The notes under the pieces: model-generated
Told to the model about the DNA's origin: nothing
What the model saw: only the letters and a program-made list of their open reading frames with translations
Database searches by the model: none
Position numbers and translations under genes: made by a program
Shown: positions 7,058-20,833 of the stretch, one piece after another
Layout: the number at the start of each line of letters is the position of its first letter
How positions within the stretch are numbered: the stretch's first letter is position 1
Virus record (IMG/VR): IMGVR_UViG_2740892370_000017
Span: 1-23,984 of that record
Source: a virus
Taxonomy: Duplodnaviria > Heunggongvirae > Uroviricota > Caudoviricetes
Reading direction: 5' to 3' (one strand)
DNA length: 23,984 nucleotides

Positions 7058-7516
7058 TTAAACGTGTCTAATAAAAATCACCCGATTAACGCCGCGCTGA
7101 TGTAAACCGCGATTAAGAGTTTGTTCCTCTTCCCCTTTGGCGAAAAACTGTGGATGGCGGACTTCCACACCATAATTAAATTCGCCAGGGAGAGAATCGA
7201 GAAAATGCCAAAGCGCAGGCAGCTCCCGTGGGCCGAATGTGGCAGGCAGTTGCAGCCAGTATTGCCCAATGCGCGGAGCCAACGGTGACATGCGGGTCAA
7301 AAATTCAGTCACTAAATCATCGCAATGTCGTAATGCTGCCTGATGCGAAATGGTCGCCGGAAACTTAAAACAGAAGCGGAAGTCATCTGTGGTCTGTTCA
7401 CGCCAGCGCAGGACAACCTCGGGTTTCGGCAGGGCGTAAAGCGTGGTGTTGCCCTCCACGCAGTTAACATGACGGGTATTGAAGGCTAACCCACTGATTT
7501 TAATAAGTCTCTTGTG
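7058..7516 (-). pseudogene. yecE: remnant of a chromosomal DUF72-family gene (probably yecE), truncated at both ends
   Basis: GC-richer ORF wedged between two integrase genes. Track start at 7459 is GTG and the frame stays open upstream to a stop at 7517-7519 with no ATG, overlapping the integrase 3' end. At the other end the ORF terminates a few codons after the composition switches to AT-rich sequence near 7075. Identification as yecE is from memory. Confidence 0.45.
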
Positions 7517-8799
7517 TCACTTTGGTGACCATGGGACATCATTGGGACATAATCTGCCAGCTTCTGATTCAGCATTGCGATCTGTTCTGCATTGCTGTCA
7601 GTCATCCATGCTCCGTATACATTGAACACCATCTGGGCACTTGCATGACCCATCTGGCTGGCAATGAAGCTTGGATTTGCTCCGGCAGATAATGACCAGC
7701 ACGCATAAGTGTGTCGTGACTGGTATGCCTTTCGATGCCTGATGCCTGCACGCTTAATAGCTGATTCCCATGAGTCGCCAATGGAATCTACCTTGTAGAT
7801 AAAACCTACCTGTTTGCTTTTTCTAACCACCTGGGGGTTAAATACGAAAGTACATTCATGATTCACTGAACGTCCATATTCACGTAGTTGAACCTTGATG
7901 TGGTGCTGCTTACCCAGTCTTGTCATTTCAGCCTGATTTTTCAGGACACTGATAGCGGGCTGGATAAGATGTATAACCCTGTTAGTACTTGCTTCAGTTT
8001 TAGGTAGAGTGAACTCATCGAGTTTCGTATAATTGCGCCGGATAGTAATTGTTCCTGCTTTCAGATCGATATCTTCCCAGGCCAGGGAGACCAGTTCACC
8101 ATGACGCATTCCTGTGTACACAGCCAATGACCACAGGTTTTTTGTCTGCTGATGTCGGCAAGCATCTATCAGGCGAATAAATTCGTCACGAGTTAGCGGA
8201 TCTGGCTCTGCCCTGGCTTTTTTAAGAGGCTTAATTCCCTCGAAGGGATTTGCTTCTAAGTAACCGTGATCTGCAGCAAACTGAAACATTCCAGCGATTG
8301 TCGTCATGTAATAATTTACTGTGACAACGCTTCGTCCTTTTACCGGAGCCTTACCTTTTGTTGGATTTTGGTGTCCGGTCAGCAAATCTTTCCTGATATA
8401 CAGCAATTCCTCTTTGGTCACCGTTGACACCAGTCTGCTACCTCCAATTTTCGGAACCATCGTTCTTGCAACGGATTCATAACGATTGAATGCATTTGCA
8501 GAGATTTCCATTCGTTTCAGATCCAGCCACTTTTCTTCAAGTTCTTTCACCGTAATTTCTTTTTTACTTACCCCAAAAGCCTGAAGGTTAGGGGAGTCAG
8601 GGAACTGTGCAGCATAATCAAAGTTTCCTGTGCGGATGGCAAAACATACCGATGTCCGCAGTTCTCCAGCGATCTTCCTGTTCTTGGCAGTGTCAGGGAC
8701 ACCAAGATTTTCCCTGACACGTTTACCTTTAAAATTAAACCAGATGCGCAATGTGCCACCGTGGTTTTCGACGCCTGTTGGATATTTGACTTTATCCAT
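7486..8799 (-). CDS. int: phage tyrosine integrase (lambdoid/Rac-like family)
   Basis: 437 aa; N-terminal ...PTGVENHGGTLRIWFNFKGKRVRENL... resembles the arm-binding domain of Rac/P4-like integrases; C-terminal catalytic residues present (R in ...GMRHGEL..., H-x-x-R in ...RHTYACW..., Y in ...VYGAWM). Confidence 0.9.
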   Translation of the reverse strand: MDKVKYPTGVENHGGTLRIWFNFKGKRVRENLGVPDTAKNRKIAGELRTSVCFAIRTGNFDYAAQFPDSPNLQAFGVSKKEITVKELEEKWLDLKRMEISANAFNRYESVARTMVPKIGGSRLVSTVTKEELLYIRKDLLTGHQNPTKGKAPVKGRSVVTVNYYMTTIAGMFQFAADHGYLEANPFEGIKPLKKARAEPDPLTRDEFIRLIDACRHQQTKNLWSLAVYTGMRHGELVSLAWEDIDLKAGTITIRRNYTKLDEFTLPKTEASTNRVIHLIQPAISVLKNQAEMTRLGKQHHIKVQLREYGRSVNHECTFVFNPQVVRKSKQVGFIYKVDSIGDSWESAIKRAGIRHRKAYQSRHTYACWSLSAGANPSFIASQMGHASAQMVFNVYGAWMTDSNAEQIAMLNQKLADYVPMMSHGHQSDTRDLLKSVG

Positions 8800-10512: not shown

Positions 10513-10905
10513 TCAGAATGGTTTTGTTGCCATCAGTTCGTAATATCCGGCGCTCCATGTGTCATATTTTCTGAACCATTTTTCTGTATACTGTTTCCTG
10601 GCGATGAGTCTGCGCAGTCGTCTGATTGTTCGCTGGTGTGCGCGGGTATACTCTGTGGTTGATTCTCCACGTTTCCATATCTCATTCCCGTTGAAGATAA
10701 AACGCTTGTCAGGATAGCGTTGCCGGAATCCTGAACGTTCAAAAGCGCGGGTGGTCATAAAGAATGCCAGGTAACGAATTGCCGTTTTTCGGGTGAGGCA
10801 TTTTTTTGTTCTTCCGTGGCGTGTTACAAAAAATAACGGGCCGACGGGTGTATCATGTTTCTGTAATGCCTGGTCAATGGCGCTGGCGGTGCGGTTGTCG
10901 ATCAT
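10513..10905 (-). CDS. hypothetical protein (130 aa), basic
   Basis: ATG 10905; ATGA overlap with upstream track ORF; no recognised motif. Confidence 0.5.
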   Translation of the reverse strand: MIDNRTASAIDQALQKHDTPVGPLFFVTRHGRTKKCLTRKTAIRYLAFFMTTRAFERSGFRQRYPDKRFIFNGNEIWKRGESTTEYTRAHQRTIRRLRRLIARKQYTEKWFRKYDTWSAGYYELMATKPF

Positions 10906-11091
10906 TTCTTTATTTCTCCCGAATAACGTTCATGACTCATTACTTCCCAGTTCCGGCCGTCGCCTTTCGATAACAGCCGCCAGCAACGGTTAACCTTCAG
11001 ACTGAGATATCCGGTGCGCTGTATCCGATGCGGAAATATCCGTCGGCATCGGTACAACAACAGGACCTGCAATGCCTGCCGGTGGATCCGC

Positions 11092-11307
11092 TCAGGAATG
11101 CGTGTTGCTGTTAATGCCACCGGTTTCCTCCTGAGCAGGTGCTGTTATCTGATACCCCGCTCTTTCTGCCAGCCGTATGAATGTATCCATGCTGGCAATC
11201 AGCTCGCCATCGCGGACTTTGCAGACACCTGTGACTTGGCCATTTTCAATTGTCATAACGATCTGCACTTTTTCGCGCACAACAGATACAGGGGATAAAT
11301 TAGCCAT
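11092..11307 (-). CDS. hypothetical protein (71 aa)
   Basis: ATG 11307 with SD GAGGA 8 nt upstream; protein-like composition. Confidence 0.5.
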   Translation of the reverse strand: MANLSPVSVVREKVQIVMTIENGQVTGVCKVRDGELIASMDTFIRLAERAGYQITAPAQEETGGINSNTHS

Positions 11308-11432
11308 CAGTTAATTCCTCCACTGGTATATTTTTCTTTCGCGTAATCAATAACCTCTTGAAAAAGGTTGTCTATAATTAACTTTCCGGTTTCAGTCAGG
11401 TATTCAGTATGTTGATTAATCCCGATAGCATT

Positions 11433-11666
11433 CTAGTATGCAGTGTGGATTTCGGTTTCACCCTCCACCCGGCCCAATTCACCACGGGTAATACCTTCGA
11501 AGCGTAACAGCAACTGGTTTATAAACTGTTCAGTTATTTCTATAGTCGCAATGTTCCCATCCGGAAGGTCAACAATAAGCAGATTACCACCTGTTTTACG
11601 TTTTATTCGATGGAGTGCCGCAACAGCTATACGGCGACGATATGTATTAATGGGTTCATATGCCAT
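11433..11666 (-). CDS. hypothetical small protein (77 aa) with Arg-rich N-terminus
   Basis: ATG 11666; N-terminal ...TYRRRIAVAALHRIKRK... is Arg-rich; sits just below a 200-bp AT-rich intergenic region where a leftward early promoter would be expected. An N-like antiterminator role is speculation. Confidence 0.45.
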   Translation of the reverse strand: MAYEPINTYRRRIAVAALHRIKRKTGGNLLIVDLPDGNIATIEITEQFINQLLLRFEGITRGELGRVEGETEIHTAY

Positions 11667-11865
11667 TTGTTATTTCCCGTATGCTTTACGCAGAAATAAG
11701 CAGGCAATATGCATGTAATTTTCACCGTGTTGTGCAATAAGACAGGCTGTTTTGTGTGATGTCTTATGTTTTATAAAAGTCATAATAAAGGCTCCAGTGG
11801 ATTAAGTGTGTGATAATCCCCGGCGATTAAGCCGTAATATATTGTTCAGCGATAATATGTTTTAT

Positions 11866-12066
11866 TTAACTGGATAGTTCTTTTTCAGTTGCTGCTTCAG
11901 CATAGCAACGTGCAAATTCAAGAACTTCATCACCTGTTCTTTTTATTGCATCGTTGTCTGACATTTGTAATACGACAACTGCGCATAATAAATCATGGAT
12001 ATTGTTTGCAAAGGAATCCGGTGCCAGGCATAAGCCTTCATACTTATCATGGATATTGCCAGTCAT
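11866..12066 (-). CDS. hypothetical small protein (66 aa)
   Basis: Track ORF 11866..12108 overlaps the upstream gene; internal ATG 12066 (MTGNIHDKYEG...) has SD AAAGGAG 8 nt upstream and starts 5 nt after the upstream stop. Confidence 0.45.
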   Translation of the reverse strand: MTGNIHDKYEGLCLAPDSFANNIHDLLCAVVVLQMSDNDAIKRTGDEVLEFARCYAEAATEKELSS

Positions 12067-12071
12067 TGTTG

Positions 12072-12743
12072 CTACTCCTTTGCTTCTGATTTTCCCGTTA
12101 ACAACCACACCAGGTCACAATTAAGCGCACTGGCCAGTGGTACTATCTGATCAGCAGGAACTTCACAGATGCCGCATTCCCAGTCGTTTATGGGGGCACT
12201 GTAGGTATGAATCATGCGGGCAAGATCAGCTTCAGTTAAGCCCAGTTTTTTACGGGCGCTTTTGATGCGTGCGCCAATACTTTCCACATGGACTTCAGGC
12301 GCATTTACGCGAATAGCTGACTCGCTGTTTTTTTCACTCAGCAGAGAAAGCGGATCGCATCCCAGGACGTTTGCCAGGGGGATAAGCATGCTGATGGTTG
12401 GTTCGTACTCTCCGCTCTCCCATTGCAGAATAATCTCTTCGTCAAGATCGAGTAGTCTGGCCAGTTCGGTGGTCGTCAAGCCGCAGGCTTCACGTTGGGT
12501 ACGGATTTTTCCAAAAAAGTGACTATGCGAAACCATAGCTTTTGCCTCACATAGTTTTTCTGCAAAAATTGATGCAGTTTCTTCTGTTTTTTGCAGGGAA
12601 CGCATCAGGCATCTGATTGCATTATAAACCCTCTCACTTTCTGCTCCGTTTTCTGACATGTAGGAATAGATCATTCCAAGCAGCGAGCCGCCTTCTTGTA
12701 TTTGTGCTGCAATTTCATCCATCACCTTAACTGCATGCTTCAT
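12072..12743 (-). CDS. double helix-turn-helix (XRE-type) DNA-binding protein (223 aa)
   Basis: Two HTH_XRE-like segments (...GLTTTELARLLDLDEEIILQWESGEYEPTISMLIPLANVLGCDPLSLL... and ...GLTEADLARMIH...INDWECGICEVPADQIVPLASALNCDLVWLLTG). ATG 12743 with SD AGGAGG. Lies immediately downstream of cI on the same strand. Confidence 0.7.
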   Translation of the reverse strand: MKHAVKVMDEIAAQIQEGGSLLGMIYSYMSENGAESERVYNAIRCLMRSLQKTEETASIFAEKLCEAKAMVSHSHFFGKIRTQREACGLTTTELARLLDLDEEIILQWESGEYEPTISMLIPLANVLGCDPLSLLSEKNSESAIRVNAPEVHVESIGARIKSARKKLGLTEADLARMIHTYSAPINDWECGICEVPADQIVPLASALNCDLVWLLTGKSEAKE

Positions 12744-12919
12744 ATGAGCCTCCTGTTGTTTTAATTTTACAATAGCTAAAGCGTTTGGTTATGTCAATCG
12801 CTATAGCTATGCATTTTGAGCAGCAAAGAACAGATTATGAGAGAAATGAGACGATACGTAGGGAGTTGAGATACAGGAAAGTAGAGCAGCTGCGCAATAC
12901 AGCTGCCGGTGATGTTGAC

Positions 12920-13624
12920 TTATCCGACCCTGTTATACTGGATTGACTGATGAATGAGAACTTTCCCCATTATGAATAGATGTTCTTCAGCTGATTCACT
13001 TATAAACCATTCCTTGTAGGCCGGATTGTCTGATATAACAGCAAGTTGCATCCCTTGCATTTGCAGGCGTTTGATATGGAAGGTGTGCCCAAAAATAAAA
13101 ACATAGATACCGTCAGTTTCAAAATTTCTGACGGATACGTCGACAAACACCTGATCTCCTGCACACAGAGTAGGAGCCATGCTGTCGCCATCAACTGTTA
13201 TCATCTTTATGATATTTGCTGGCCTGCTACAGAACAGACGTCTTGCGGCGTCATGTGAAAATTCTATAGCATGGACCGTTTCTGCAAAATCTGAAACAAG
13301 GAATGTTCCTGGTCCCGCGCTGGCAGCGATATCCAGGACTTCCACACGAAAAATATCCTTATCATTTTCCAGCGGGGAATATGATACCTGTGGTGTCGGA
13401 TTGCAGGATGTGCTTTCTTCTGGGGTCATAGGACCAACACCGTACGATAGCCACTCGGGGCGCACGTTCAGGGTATTGGCTATCTCCACAACTTTCCTGG
13501 AGCCTGTGGCACCATTAACCAGTTTATTTACGCTCGATTGAGCCATGCCAACCTCTCTGGCCAGTTTTCCCTGCGAGTATCCGCGGATAGTCATAGCTAA
13601 CTGTAGCCTGTCTGAAAAGCTCAT
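12920..13624 (-). CDS. cI: cI-like phage repressor (N-terminal HTH, C-terminal LexA/S24-type autopeptidase domain)
   Basis: From ATG 13624 (SD AAGGAGG): MSFSDRLQLAMTIRGYSQGKLAREVGMAQSSVNKLVNG... (HTH); C-terminal ...VDGDSMAPTL... and ...HIKRL... match the Ser/Lys dyad context of S24 peptidases. Divergent from the Cro-like gene. Confidence 0.85.
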   Translation of the reverse strand: MSFSDRLQLAMTIRGYSQGKLAREVGMAQSSVNKLVNGATGSRKVVEIANTLNVRPEWLSYGVGPMTPEESTSCNPTPQVSYSPLENDKDIFRVEVLDIAASAGPGTFLVSDFAETVHAIEFSHDAARRLFCSRPANIIKMITVDGDSMAPTLCAGDQVFVDVSVRNFETDGIYVFIFGHTFHIKRLQMQGMQLAVISDNPAYKEWFISESAEEHLFIMGKVLIHQSIQYNRVG

Positions 13625-13747
13625 AAGTCCTCCTTTTTCTGCCCTTTTAGTGTATCGCCTTAGCGATATATACACAAACCGCTTTTCCGCACATTGTAAT
13701 CGCTTTGATCAATCGCTATAGTGAATGGAATCAGGTTGGAGGTCGAT
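13625..13747. promoter_or_regulatory. cI-cro divergent control region with operator candidates
   Basis: 16-bp perfect palindrome TATCGCCTTAGCGATA at 13653-13668; additional ATCGC half-site copies at about 13697 and 13710; 13-mer TCAATCGCTATAG at 13708-13720 recurs at 12794-12806 upstream of the double-HTH gene. Confidence 0.5.
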
Positions 13748-14011
13748 ATGAAAAATGAAGGTATAGCCAAGGCTGTAGATATTGCGGGAAGCCAGATTGC
13801 TCTGGCTAGGCGTTGTGGTCGCGCGCAGTCAACAATTTGCGACTGGCTGAATGGGAAGAAAAAAATTTCTCCTGAATTTGTTCCGTCTCTGGTTAAGGCG
13901 GTCGATGGGAAAGTCCAGGCGTATGAATTTCGTCCTGATCTACCGGAGCTTTTCCCACACCCAAGCTTAGCGCACACAGAAGATGGAGTGTGCGAAGGAG
14001 ATAAACAGTGA
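13748..14011 (+). CDS. cro: Cro-like small HTH regulator (87 aa)
   Basis: ATG 13748 with SD GGAGG 7 nt upstream; ...IAGSQIALARRCGRAQSTICDWLNGKK... is HTH-like; divergent from cI across the operator region. Confidence 0.6.
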   Translation: MKNEGIAKAVDIAGSQIALARRCGRAQSTICDWLNGKKKISPEFVPSLVKAVDGKVQAYEFRPDLPELFPHPSLAHTEDGVCEGDKQ

Positions 14012-14715
14012 ATACAGCAATTTTTACCGACAAAGCATCTATGACCAGCGTTGAGATTGCTGAGTTGGTTGGTAAGCGCCATGACAATGTAAAACGCACT
14101 ATTGAAACATTAGCCAAAGGTGGTGTTGTCCGGTCTCCTCAAATTGAGGTTTCCGAAAGAATCAATAACTTAGGGTTTAAAGTTCAACACGAGCATTATC
14201 TGTTTGAAGGCGAACAAGGCAAACGCGACAGCATTATTGTTGTCGCACAGCTTTGCCCTGAATTCACCGCCCGCCTGGTAGACCGCTGGCGTGAACTGGA
14301 AGAACAGATCCGTAAGCCAATGAGCGAAATCGAAATGGTTGCCGCGATGGCGCTCGAGGCTGTTCGCCAACAAAGACGTCTTGAGCATGTGGAAGAGAAA
14401 GTCATCCACGTTACCGAAACAGTCGAGCAAATCAAAAGAGGCACCATACGCGATGGTTATGCAGGCTACCGTCAGCTGGTGGCGAAAACGGGTATGTCAG
14501 ATGCGAAATGTCGCAATCTGGTGAACGCATATCAGATCCCTACTGACACCCATGAATTTATGACGCCGGATGGATTGTTGTCTCGTCGCGCGATTGTTGC
14601 AGTAGAACCCTTCATGTCTGCTTTTCATCGCATGATGAGTGAAGCAGAACCACGGGGTACTCGCTGGTATCACCCGAAGATGGGGCTGTTCCAGGCGCTG
14701 GGCTGGCAGGGGTAA
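14008..14715 (+). CDS. phage antirepressor/regulatory protein (Rha/ORF6N-like N-terminus)
   Basis: GTG 14008 overlaps the cro stop; SD AAGGAG 7 nt upstream. N-terminal ...MTSVEIAELVGKRHDNVKRTIETL... matches the conserved FGKRHDNV-type motif of Rha/ORF6N antirepressor-like proteins. Confidence 0.6.
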   Translation: MNTAIFTDKASMTSVEIAELVGKRHDNVKRTIETLAKGGVVRSPQIEVSERINNLGFKVQHEHYLFEGEQGKRDSIIVVAQLCPEFTARLVDRWRELEEQIRKPMSEIEMVAAMALEAVRQQRRLEHVEEKVIHVTETVEQIKRGTIRDGYAGYRQLVAKTGMSDAKCRNLVNAYQIPTDTHEFMTPDGLLSRRAIVAVEPFMSAFHRMMSEAEPRGTRWYHPKMGLFQALGWQG

Positions 14716-14734: not shown

Positions 14735-14914
14735 ATGCAAGTACTCAATCGCTGGTTCCGTGATGGAAGAGGGCGTCGCGTCCACGTTATACGCTGGGAG
14801 CCTGAAACACAGCGGGTTATTTACCTGCGTGATGGTTATCCGGATGAGTGCTTCAGCCCACTATGGTTGTTTCGTCGTGATTTTGTTGAGTGCGAAGCGC
14901 CACCAGCATATTGA
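14735..14914 (+). CDS. hypothetical small protein (59 aa)
   Basis: Not reported separately by the track. Frame from ATG 14735 reads MQVLNRWFRDGRGRRVHVIRWEPETQRVIYLRDGYPDECFSPLWLFRRDFVECEAPPAY, more protein-like than the overlapping frame of the 340-aa track ORF. Confidence 0.4.
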   Translation: MQVLNRWFRDGRGRRVHVIRWEPETQRVIYLRDGYPDECFSPLWLFRRDFVECEAPPAY

Positions 14915-15188
14915 TTCTGCAATTCCGGGACGTTACACTGCTCAGGCACCTTATAAAGCGGGTGCCGGGATTGGCGTCCTGAAACTTACAGAAGAGCATA
15001 ACCGCGCTCATGCGGTTTTTTCATGTCATGAGCATTGCTACGCCCAAATTATGGTGGGGCGTGCAGGGGCATCGCAAGATGCGCCGGGTTCTTCTGTGAC
15101 CGGTTACGCCAACCCTGTACGTCTCACCACCTCTGTGATTGGCGTCCCATGTGGTGAGTGTTTTAAACTCACAGAAGGGGCTGTCATC

Positions 15189-15740
15189 ATGACTACTCTC
15201 CCAACCATCGCTCAACCTGAACTTTGCATTGTTGCTGGCAAAGTGGTTACTTCTTCTCTGTCTGTTGCCTGTTATTTCCGCAAACAACACAAAAATGTCA
15301 TTCAAAAAATTGCGTCTCTTGAATGCTCTGCCGAATTTACTGAGCTGAATTTTCAGCCCAGTGAATACACCGACGCATCAGGCCGCAAACTCCCTTGTTA
15401 CCAAATCACCCGCGACGGTTTTGCATTTCTTGCTATGGGTTTCACGGGTAAACGTGCTGCCCGGTTCAAAGAAGCATACATCAATGCCTTTAACCAGATG
15501 GAGAGGTGCTTATCAGGAGTTGGTGCGGCTGATATGCCATCTGTCGCACAAAACGCCAGAGGCGTATACCTGCATTTGCGAGAAATCCACCAAATCTGGA
15601 CAAGCCAGCTTTATCCCATGCTTAAGGCTGTTGAATCTCCGCTGGCTAGCAAACTGTACGACCGTGTAGGTGATGCTGTTTTTGGTGCTGCACTTGTTGA
15701 TTCCAGACTGAACGGTTCTGACAAGGAGGCGCACCCATGA
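15189..15740 (+). CDS. Rha-family phage regulatory protein (183 aa)
   Basis: Internal ATG 15189 of track ORF 14718..15740; ...YFRKQHKNVIQKIASL... and ...ITRDGFAFLAMGFTGKRAARFKEAYINAFNQME... match the pRha domain pattern (FGKRHDNV.R.I.NL ... MTRDGF.LLAMGFTGKKA..FK.AYI.AFN.ME) as I recall it. Confidence 0.65.
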   Translation: MTTLPTIAQPELCIVAGKVVTSSLSVACYFRKQHKNVIQKIASLECSAEFTELNFQPSEYTDASGRKLPCYQITRDGFAFLAMGFTGKRAARFKEAYINAFNQMERCLSGVGAADMPSVAQNARGVYLHLREIHQIWTSQLYPMLKAVESPLASKLYDRVGDAVFGAALVDSRLNGSDKEAHP

Positions 15741-20467: not shown

Positions 20468-20833
20468 ATGCGTGATATTCAGATGGTTCTGGATCGTTGG
20501 GGTGCATGGGCGGCGAGTGATAGTTCTGGGGTAGACTATTCGCCTATAGCTGCTGGGTTTAAAGGGCTTCTTCCCTATACAAGCAAAACACGTCAGGCTT
20601 GTTCAGATAGTGATGCATTAATTATTGAAGGTTGTCTTGCTCGTCTAAAGCAAAAAAGACCTGAAGAACACTCGCTTCTTGTTGCCCATTACCTATACGG
20701 TATCTCTAAAAGAAAGCTCGCCAAAGCTCGTAAAAAGGATGAGAAACTAATACGCATTGAGATACAGATGGCTGAGGGTTTTGTTGAAGGCTGTCTCTCA
20801 ATGCTTGATCTTTGTCTGGAAATGGACCAATAG
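20468..20833 (+). CDS. Q: late-gene antiterminator Q-like protein
   Basis: From ATG 20468: MRDIQMVLDRWGAWAA...IAAGFKGL...C.DSDALIIEGCLARLK... matches the N-terminal signature I recall for E. coli lambdoid Q-family antiterminators (MRDIQMVLERWGAWAA...); position after the replication/nin genes is canonical. Confidence 0.6.
   Translation: MRDIQMVLDRWGAWAASDSSGVDYSPIAAGFKGLLPYTSKTRQACSDSDALIIEGCLARLKQKRPEEHSLLVAHYLYGISKRKLAKARKKDEKLIRIEIQMAEGFVEGCLSMLDLCLEMDQ

Follow-up and report, generated by a model that had tools for sequence, protein, structure and literature searches.

Our analysis of a 23,984-nt stretch of lambdoid prophage DNA (IMG/VR record IMGVR_UViG_2740892370_000017; "the window" refers throughout to this whole stretch) leads us to conclude that the 176-bp spacer after its cI-type repressor gene (12744-12919) is a predicted leftward operator and promoter region (OL/PL). 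The two genes beyond this spacer, which encode a 223-aa protein with two helix-turn-helix (HTH) domains and a 66-aa protein, would then head a repressor-controlled early-left operon, in the position that N occupies in lambda. We favor, with about even confidence, a model in which the larger protein is an early regulator bearing an N-terminal helical hairpin and the smaller protein is a free hairpin, an arrangement reminiscent of SinI and SinR. The genes are ordered 66-aa gene (- strand), 223-aa gene (-), spacer, cI (-), a 123-bp control region, cro (+) and a Rha-family gene (Table 1).

Promoter and operator-like sites in the spacer after cI

The top sigma-70 promoter match between positions 11500 and 14100 is the TTGACA-17-TATTGT element in this spacer, which agrees at 10 of 12 positions. 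Operator-like sites were sought across the 24 kb as ATCGC-N4-GCGAT with two or fewer mismatches. Ten were found; four of them fall inside the two intergenic regions that flank cI, a clustering with a binomial P of 5e-6, and the sole sites with zero or one mismatch both lie in these regions. Two of the sites, designated OL1 and OL2, are superimposed on the candidate PL promoter, and sites of this form also lie beside PR and PRM.

The initial annotation had drawn attention to a 13-mer, TCAATCGCTATAG, present in both intergenic regions. It occurs exactly twice in the window, and the first copy lies where it had been placed, at 12794-12806; the second is located at 13709-13721, not 13708-13720. 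Among 5000 shuffles, six yielded a 13-mer common to the 176-bp and 123-bp regions (P ~1e-3), and the analytic expectation is 5e-4. Ten of its bases are operator bases and the other three flank the operator. The idea that the pair is under repressor/Cro-type control is strengthened by these data: the 13-mer lies in an operator-like site of the ATCGC-N4-GCGAT form, and by sequence the pair is very probably controlled by cI and Cro.

The same layout is found in a related Salmonella prophage, L083, whose cI is 67% identical to that of the window with an identical recognition helix and whose Cro is 62% identical. The L083 spacer carries the perfect palindrome ATCGCTATAGCGAT directly beside a TTGATT -35, and a second site, TCAATCGCTATAGCTAT, overlaps a TATCAT -10; the L083 cI-cro region contains ATCGCCTTAGCGAT and ATCGCTTTAGCGAT, and a hairpin of different sequence stands at the equivalent place after cI. 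In other immunity types, the spacer between repressor and regulator holds a canonical intrinsic terminator and, beyond it, a strong promoter (TTGACA-17-TATTAT or TTGACA-17-TAATAT), and this promoter is flanked by type-specific palindromes that recur in the rightward operator (OR) of the same prophage. One example is L034, with ATCGATAAACCGAT and ATCGGTAAACCTAT in the spacer compared with ATCGGAAAGCCGAT in OR. Altogether, promoter architecture like that of the candidate PL is present in L034, L044, L012, L013 and L083. Exact k-mer sharing between a spacer and its own OR was also scored in eight immunity types, reaching 13 nt in the window's type A and 11 nt in two B types; it was rejected as a general operator test, the remaining types being at the background of 8-9 nt with degenerate palindromes visible by eye. 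Equivalent reasoning, from operators and promoter elements held in common with PR, identified PL933P of prophage CP-933P, which was confirmed with reporters (PMC8630535).

The position of this promoter bears on an earlier proposal that the pair fills a rexAB-like slot and may serve an exclusion function. The lambda genes rexA and rexB are located between cI and OL/PL, and the lysogen transcribes them together with cI. The genes described here are like them in being on the cI strand, immediately downstream of cI. However, the operator-like sites and strong operator-flanked promoter at 12769-12810 precede the pair, and no homology to rexA or rexB is apparent, with Pfam returning HTH families only. 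Since rexAB lie between cI and OL/PL, the pair is in the N position rather than the rexAB position, and it should be repressed, not expressed, in a lysogen. Nor is there a match to a defense family in Pfam or PADLOC: in the latter, the large protein draws generic HTH matches and the small protein draws no match. We accordingly consider a lysogen-expressed exclusion or defense cassette quite unlikely, all the more so because other immunity types have a clear terminator at this position.

What speaks for such a cassette is the form of the hairpin directly 3' of the cI stop codon. The 66-nt stretch that includes it (12860-12925) has an RNA folding energy of -16.5 kcal/mol (z -2.4), and it is probably a weak terminator or the 3' end of the cI transcript. 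It has no U tract, the terminator scan did not call it, and some read-through from PRM into the pair is possible in a lysogen of this immunity type. Moreover, the slot carries lysogen-expressed cargo elsewhere: CP-933P, another lambdoid prophage of E. coli whose Cro is of the YdaS type, co-transcribes with its repressor gene paaA2-parE2 of the paaR2-paaA2-parE2/PL933P region, a genuine toxin-antitoxin pair, whereas in the window nothing separates cI from PL (PMC8630535).

The likeness to lambda N is one of position and predicted control, the 223-aa gene being the first leftward gene behind an operator-flanked promoter beside cI. The proteins themselves differ: the 223-aa protein is acidic (isoelectric point (pI) 5.0, net charge -11), has two HTH domains and no arginine-rich motif, and shares no sequence likeness with N.

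A two-HTH regulator with a predicted N-terminal hairpin

The initial annotation had correctly described the 223-aa product as a two-HTH protein. Pfam HTH_3 (PF01381) matches two stretches, residues 80-131 and about 157-220 (E 1.1e-17), with a score of 64.3 bits against a cut-off of 23, placing the protein among the XRE/Cro-C1 HTH proteins. An AlphaFold2 model, built on a 16-row alignment with a predicted local distance difference test (pLDDT) score of 77, has two long helices (2-32 and 37-72; pLDDT about 80) followed by a flexible linker, HTH1 at residues 79-134, a disordered segment (138-152) and HTH2 at 156-216. Both HTH domains are 33-39% identical to the DNA-binding domains of P22 C2 and of 434 repressor and Cro, and the modeled folds match P22 C2 and 434 Cro with target-normalised TM-scores of 0.89-0.92. 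Each domain thus shares the fold of these repressors, but here the two are arranged in tandem in one chain, no S24 or other C-terminal domain is present, and the recognition helix of HTH1 is acidic. That helix begins DEEIILQWE, compared with SNVAISQWE in P22 C2, and HTH1 as a whole has a pI of 4.2 and a net charge of -7. The control for these values was the DNA-binding N-terminal domain of the window's own cI, with a pI of 9.4; 434 and P22 domains gave provisional reference values. In a Salmonella relative HTH1 is not acidic. Foldseek searches with the model against PDB and BFVD returned single HTH domains and generic CI/HTH proteins only, and the literature searched yielded no characterised homologue and no early-left regulator with tandem HTH domains. 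In databases, family members are named "helix-turn-helix domain-containing protein" or "transcriptional regulator", and carriers of the family include Stx1a-, Stx2a- and Stx2d-converting phages.

The regulator gene is a mosaic. When the window was compared with the heteroimmune phage Stx2_EH2246 using blastn, identity was 97% over 11667-12506, absent over 12507-13994, and resumed at 80% in the Rha gene. Homology is lost from 12507, which puts the left boundary of the immunity cassette precisely where the hairpin meets HTH1, so that the hairpin-coding 5' end of the gene belongs with OL/PL, cI, OR and cro. A survey of 5426 complete E. coli genomes gave the same picture: the block 12500-13760 is present in 20, full length every time, the DNA of the HTH part and small gene is present in 319, and a type-B cassette follows the same pattern as this type-A block. 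The hairpin comes in at least eight unrelated-looking types: in 80 IMG/VR loci its eight clusters are distributed over seven repressor clusters, each type being confined to one of them. The HTH part and the small gene, by comparison, are common to heteroimmune prophages, Stx phages included. Given hairpin types sit on one-HTH bodies (136-165 aa) or two-HTH bodies (213-232 aa), and a 304-aa Salmonella relative has three HTH domains and a different N-terminal region. As judged from these alignments, the predicted hairpin is a swappable module that moves together with the immunity region, and it probably sets which proteins pair. The location of the hairpin in the immunity cassette, combined with exchange of the HTH part among heteroimmune phages, points to HTH targets outside the immunity region.

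Targets of this kind would also be expected if the pair acted in establishing lysogeny as CII and CIII do, the regulator switching on promoters of the repressor and integrase beyond the cassette while the small helical protein shields the regulator, much as CIII protects CII in lambda. We consider this unlikely. It accords with the early timing predicted for the pair and with an HTH part common to heteroimmune phages, as is lambda cII; no cII-type gene follows cro, a Rha-family gene standing there instead. The best PHROG for the 223-aa protein, phrog_4836 (E 5.6e-55), bears the label "CII-like regulator", and in phage ASU11 the annotation is "putative CII repressor". However, these labels are annotation only, Pfam gives no Phage_CII or CIII match at E values up to 0.1, the regulator is acidic, and in the conserved DNA right of cro there is nothing convincing as a CII-type site, promoter or repeat.

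The immunity linkage admits a different reading, to which we assign an equally small chance: that the hairpin or the small protein is an anti-repressor, made from PL, that inactivates the cognate cI (or Cro) and provides a second switch layer with positive feedback toward lysis. MOR of TP901-1 and AimX/AimC offer analogues, as do the TF-smORF modules described below. The pairing of every hairpin cluster with a single repressor cluster, the adjacency of the regulator gene to cI, and an HTH1 that looks ill-suited to DNA binding are all in keeping with this idea, and small non-proteolytic antirepressors encoded beside XRE-type factors are documented (PMC10432266; bioRxiv 10.1101/2025.11.23.689978). 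Yet the linked segments lie less than 400 bp apart, which confounds the linkage, and heteroimmune phages have the same small protein, which is hence not immunity-specific. Its gene is also co-directional with and coupled to that of the regulator, unlike the divergent genes of the TF-smORF modules, and the Ash/Rha-type gene behind the isrK and C4 RNAs may already supply a function of the antirepressor type.

The 66-aa protein as a putative free hairpin

The 66-aa gene begins, as initially reported, 5 nt after the upstream stop, its ATG following the TAG of the 223-aa gene. An AAGGAG Shine-Dalgarno sequence 8 nt before this ATG is formed by the last two codons of the larger gene. Across 15 alleles the ratio of non-synonymous to synonymous substitution rates (dN/dS) is 0.17-0.19, with 13 synonymous and nine non-synonymous segregating changes, which equals the value for the HTH-coding part of the neighboring regulator gene (0.19) and argues that the 66-aa frame is a real coding gene, as the initial annotation had assumed. 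In an AlphaFold2 model (pLDDT 76) the acidic product (pI 4.4) forms helices at 19-34 and 39-65, a predicted two-helix hairpin.

Although no match to the 66-aa protein was found in Pfam or PADLOC, and none to its 121-aa form or to the type-A hairpin in Pfam, profile comparisons connect it to the regulator family. It matches phrog_4587 (E 2.6e-35), the C-terminal half of phrog_5451 (121 aa) and positions 24-71 of phrog_4836, which correspond to the regulator-family N-domain (E 7.7e-5). In BLASTP alignments of 42-43 residues its identity to the hairpins of type-B regulators such as P0023 and P0060 is 45-47%, and hhalign aligns it to the type-B N-domain with a probability of 97.7% (E 2.5e-12); hairpin types C and D give weak signals. 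The type-A hairpin profile gave no signal against any of the other hairpin types, a weak negative with profiles this shallow, and a search with this hairpin alone retrieved four fragmentary E. coli proteins and no free-standing family. The 66-aa family is itself narrow, with 13 representatives among 1.84 billion proteins (phmmer).

At other loci a longer protein of 121-127 aa has the 66-aa-type hairpin as its C-terminal domain, its gene lying 170-770 bp downstream of the regulator gene, and at some loci a homologue is absent; in most two-HTH E. coli loci the gap between regulator and small gene is 5 nt. Compared with the long-form loci L037 and L038, blastn homology of the window stops at 12097 and restarts at 12047, and the window lacks about 430 nt that those loci possess. 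The intervening segment accounts for the present stop, 5-nt gap and start, and by this comparison the 66-aa protein looks like a shortened derivative of the 121-127-aa protein. A deletion that removed the 5' half of a longer gene might have left a functionless remnant, but we regard this as very unlikely. The junction is visible at 12048-12096 and one allele has a stop at codon 36; set against these are the dN/dS ratio, a well-placed Shine-Dalgarno sequence and the occurrence of several alleles on at least 1000 contigs each. The interrupted allele is a natural one (L012, 3447-3644; S36*).

The multi-HTH regulators of Salmonella likewise have a small gene 3 nt downstream, with products of 75 and 86 aa; the 75-aa product is weakly like the 66-aa protein (E 0.007, search of 14 sequences). 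In L083 (4714-5284) and L084 (4918-5385) the regulator precedes two or three small proteins, and some of them resemble further helical-hairpin variants. In a 116-aa Salmonella protein the N-terminal 47 residues are 53% identical to the E. coli 121-aa protein and the C-terminal helical region differs; hairpin swapping may thus extend to a second protein family of the early-left operon.

The tight coupling of a small gene to an upstream HTH gene had also raised the possibility of a type II toxin-antitoxin pair, with the HTH protein as antitoxin and the 66-aa protein as toxin. This is the weakest of the alternatives, and we judge it extremely improbable. Besides the 5-nt spacing, it can draw on weak sub-threshold Pfam matches of YdaS and MqsA type, which are generic to HTH proteins. 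Against it, the small protein is predicted to be an acidic two-helix hairpin homologous to regulator N-domains and matches no toxin family in Pfam or PADLOC; in many relatives its homologue is fused, distant or absent; a natural allele carries a premature stop; and a separate ParE-like gene lies farther down the operon.

We envision a scenario in which cI holds the pair off in the lysogen and Cro lowers its expression later. A lone two-helix hairpin normally pairs, burying its hydrophobic face, and for this reason the N-terminal hairpin of the regulator could mediate oligomerisation, with two copies building a four-helix bundle in the dimer. The 66-aa protein, as a free type-B hairpin, would associate with hairpin-bearing partners and modulate their oligomeric state. 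Because the hairpin of the neighboring regulator is type A, the partner is more likely to be the 66-aa protein itself, another hairpin protein or the type-B regulator of another prophage. The proposal is modeled on SinI and SinR of Bacillus subtilis, which share a four-helix bundle, and the likeness, which extends to SlrR and SlrA, consists of an XRE-type HTH regulator with a two-helix module next to a small homologous two-helix protein (PMC3163267). The systems differ in that the module is C-terminal in SinR and N-terminal in the 223-aa protein, with no sequence similarity between them, and in that the 66-aa protein matches the module of other family members rather than that of its neighbor.

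Several observations weigh against this SinI/SinR-like model, beyond the possible read-through from PRM discussed above. No similarity was detected between the 66-aa protein and the type-A hairpin of its neighbor, a weak negative given shallow profiles, and as far as sequence comparison goes a direct interaction of the two is unsupported. The small gene does not co-vary with hairpin type. Physical closeness alone could account for the linkage of the hairpin to immunity. Nor does the hairpin stand out in conservation between the window and the Salmonella relative: its identity is 44%, compared with 42% for HTH1 and 39% for HTH2. Finally, one-HTH variants of the family retain HTH1 only; since HTH1 is the acidic domain, canonical DNA binding by this conserved core is doubtful, and models based on protein binding therefore stay alive.

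Other phages also place an HTH factor beside a small protein in the lysis-lysogeny region. In the modules of transcription factor and small open reading frame (TF-smORF) and in AimX/AimC, small proteins decide repressor activity, and the small frames are divergent, factor-activated and specific for the cognate repressor (PMC10432266; bioRxiv 10.1101/2025.11.23.689978). In contrast, the 223-aa and 66-aa genes are on the same strand, have a common upstream promoter and appear translationally coupled across the 5-nt gap. Specificity for a cognate cI would not be expected here, the small gene being 94-100% identical across heteroimmune prophages.

Gene neighborhood and significance

The window covers a lambdoid prophage with its integration site beside yecN/yecE, and several E. 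coli strains, Shiga-toxigenic ones and others, carry chromosomal DNA that is 100% identical to it. Positions of the features discussed are collected in Table 1.

Table 1. Genes, control elements and protein segments in the window
Feature	Position	Strand	Details
Integrase gene	7486-8799
66-aa gene	11866-12066	-	RefSeq WP_032162797, coordinates agree; AAGGAG at 12075-12080
Segment without counterpart in long-form loci	12048-12096	-	Spans last codons of the regulator gene, the 5-nt gap and first codons of the 66-aa gene
223-aa regulator gene	12072-12743	-	RefSeq WP_244469444, coordinates agree; AGGAGG at 12749-12754, ATG 5 nt further on
HTH2 of 223-aa protein	12084-12287	-	aa 153-220; preceded by disordered linker
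HTH1 of 223-aa protein	12333-12515	-	aa 77-137
Predicted helical hairpin of 223-aa protein	12528-12743	-	aa 1-72
Immunity cassette	12507-13994		Hairpin-coding 5' end of regulator gene, OL/PL, cI, OR, cro; blastn against Stx2_EH2246
Candidate PL promoter	12769-12797	-	-35 TTGACA (12797-12792), 17-nt spacer, -10 TATTGT (12774-12769); sigma-70 match
Operator-like site OL1, ATAGCTAAAGCGTT	12772-12785		2 mismatches; covers promoter spacer and -10
13-mer TCAATCGCTATAG, copy 1	12794-12806	+
Operator-like site OL2, ATCGCTATAGCTAT	12797-12810		1 mismatch; abuts/overlaps -35; holds most of the 13-mer
Hairpin directly 3' of cI stop	12885-12907	-	9-bp stem, no clear U tract
cI-type repressor gene	12920-13624	-	234 aa from ATG at 13624; N-terminal HTH_3 (Pfam E 7.4e-8) and Peptidase_S24 (E 9.8e-18); RefSeq coding sequence, identical coordinates
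Perfect palindromic operator-like site ATCGCCTTAGCGAT, OR3-like	13654-13667		cI side of cI-cro region; sole zero-mismatch match in window
PR promoter	13694-13722	+	TTGTAA (13694-13699), 17 nt, TATAGT (13717-13722); promoter scan
13-mer TCAATCGCTATAG, copy 2	13709-13721	+	Overlaps OR site 13712-13725 and -10 of PR
OR operator-like site	13712-13725		Overlaps -10 of PR
cro-like gene	13748-14011	+	87 aa, YdaS-type HTH; Pfam YdaS_toxin E 1.3e-15; RefSeq coding sequence
Q-type antiterminator gene	near 20468-20833

To the right of cro, Rha-family genes at 14008-14715 (+) and 14844-15740 (+) fill the region, and no cII-type gene is present there. Rfam identifies an isrK Hfq-binding RNA (14946-15022, +, 61 bits) and a C4 antisense RNA (15047-15134, +, 80 bits), both overlapping the annotated 5' end of the Ash and Rha domain gene at 14844-15740 in the rightward early operon. 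We take the arrangement at 14946-15134 to resemble the antirepressor control of P1 immI and the IsrK type of Gifsy-1.

To the left of the pair, the 200 bp between the 66-aa gene and the next annotated feature (11667-11865) contain no annotated gene and are 97% conserved with Stx phages; a 37-aa open reading frame (ORF) at 11670-11783, with GGAG upstream, lies inside. Beyond it is a RefSeq pseudogene with an internal stop (11307-11666, -), in which a 77-aa ORF (11433-11666) is left. A 72-aa protein with a ParE_like toxin domain (10902-11120, -; Pfam E 2.2e-16) is preceded by a 71-aa ORF without a family match (11092-11307, -), the two overlapping by 29 nt. Located about 750 bp downstream of the 66-aa gene, they possibly constitute a toxin-antitoxin pair of the early-left operon. 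No N-type gene is annotated in the leftward operon.

These results correct an assumption about position: genes downstream of cI are not all rex-type and expressed in the lysogen. They also bring to light an uncharacterised family that provides the gene closest to the early-left promoter in a large set of prophages of E. coli and Salmonella; individual alleles are recorded on at least 1000 contigs. The absence of annotated N and cII genes from their usual places makes the 223-aa regulator a prime candidate for a step in the lysis-lysogeny or induction programme controlling the release of Shiga toxin. A hairpin that is swappable and linked to immunity, carried on a conserved HTH body, together with free-standing hairpin paralogues in the same operon, suggests a previously undescribed layer of protein interaction in lambdoid switches. 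We speculate, as a long shot, that the hypervariable hairpin is a specificity code for polylysogens, with the early regulator of each immunity type pairing only with itself or its own repressor, and that the free type-B hairpin is a decoy that poisons the type-B regulators of co-resident or superinfecting heteroimmune prophages. If so, the decoy would be a device for competition between prophages in Shiga-toxigenic E. coli strains that carry many lambdoid prophages, Stx phages among them.

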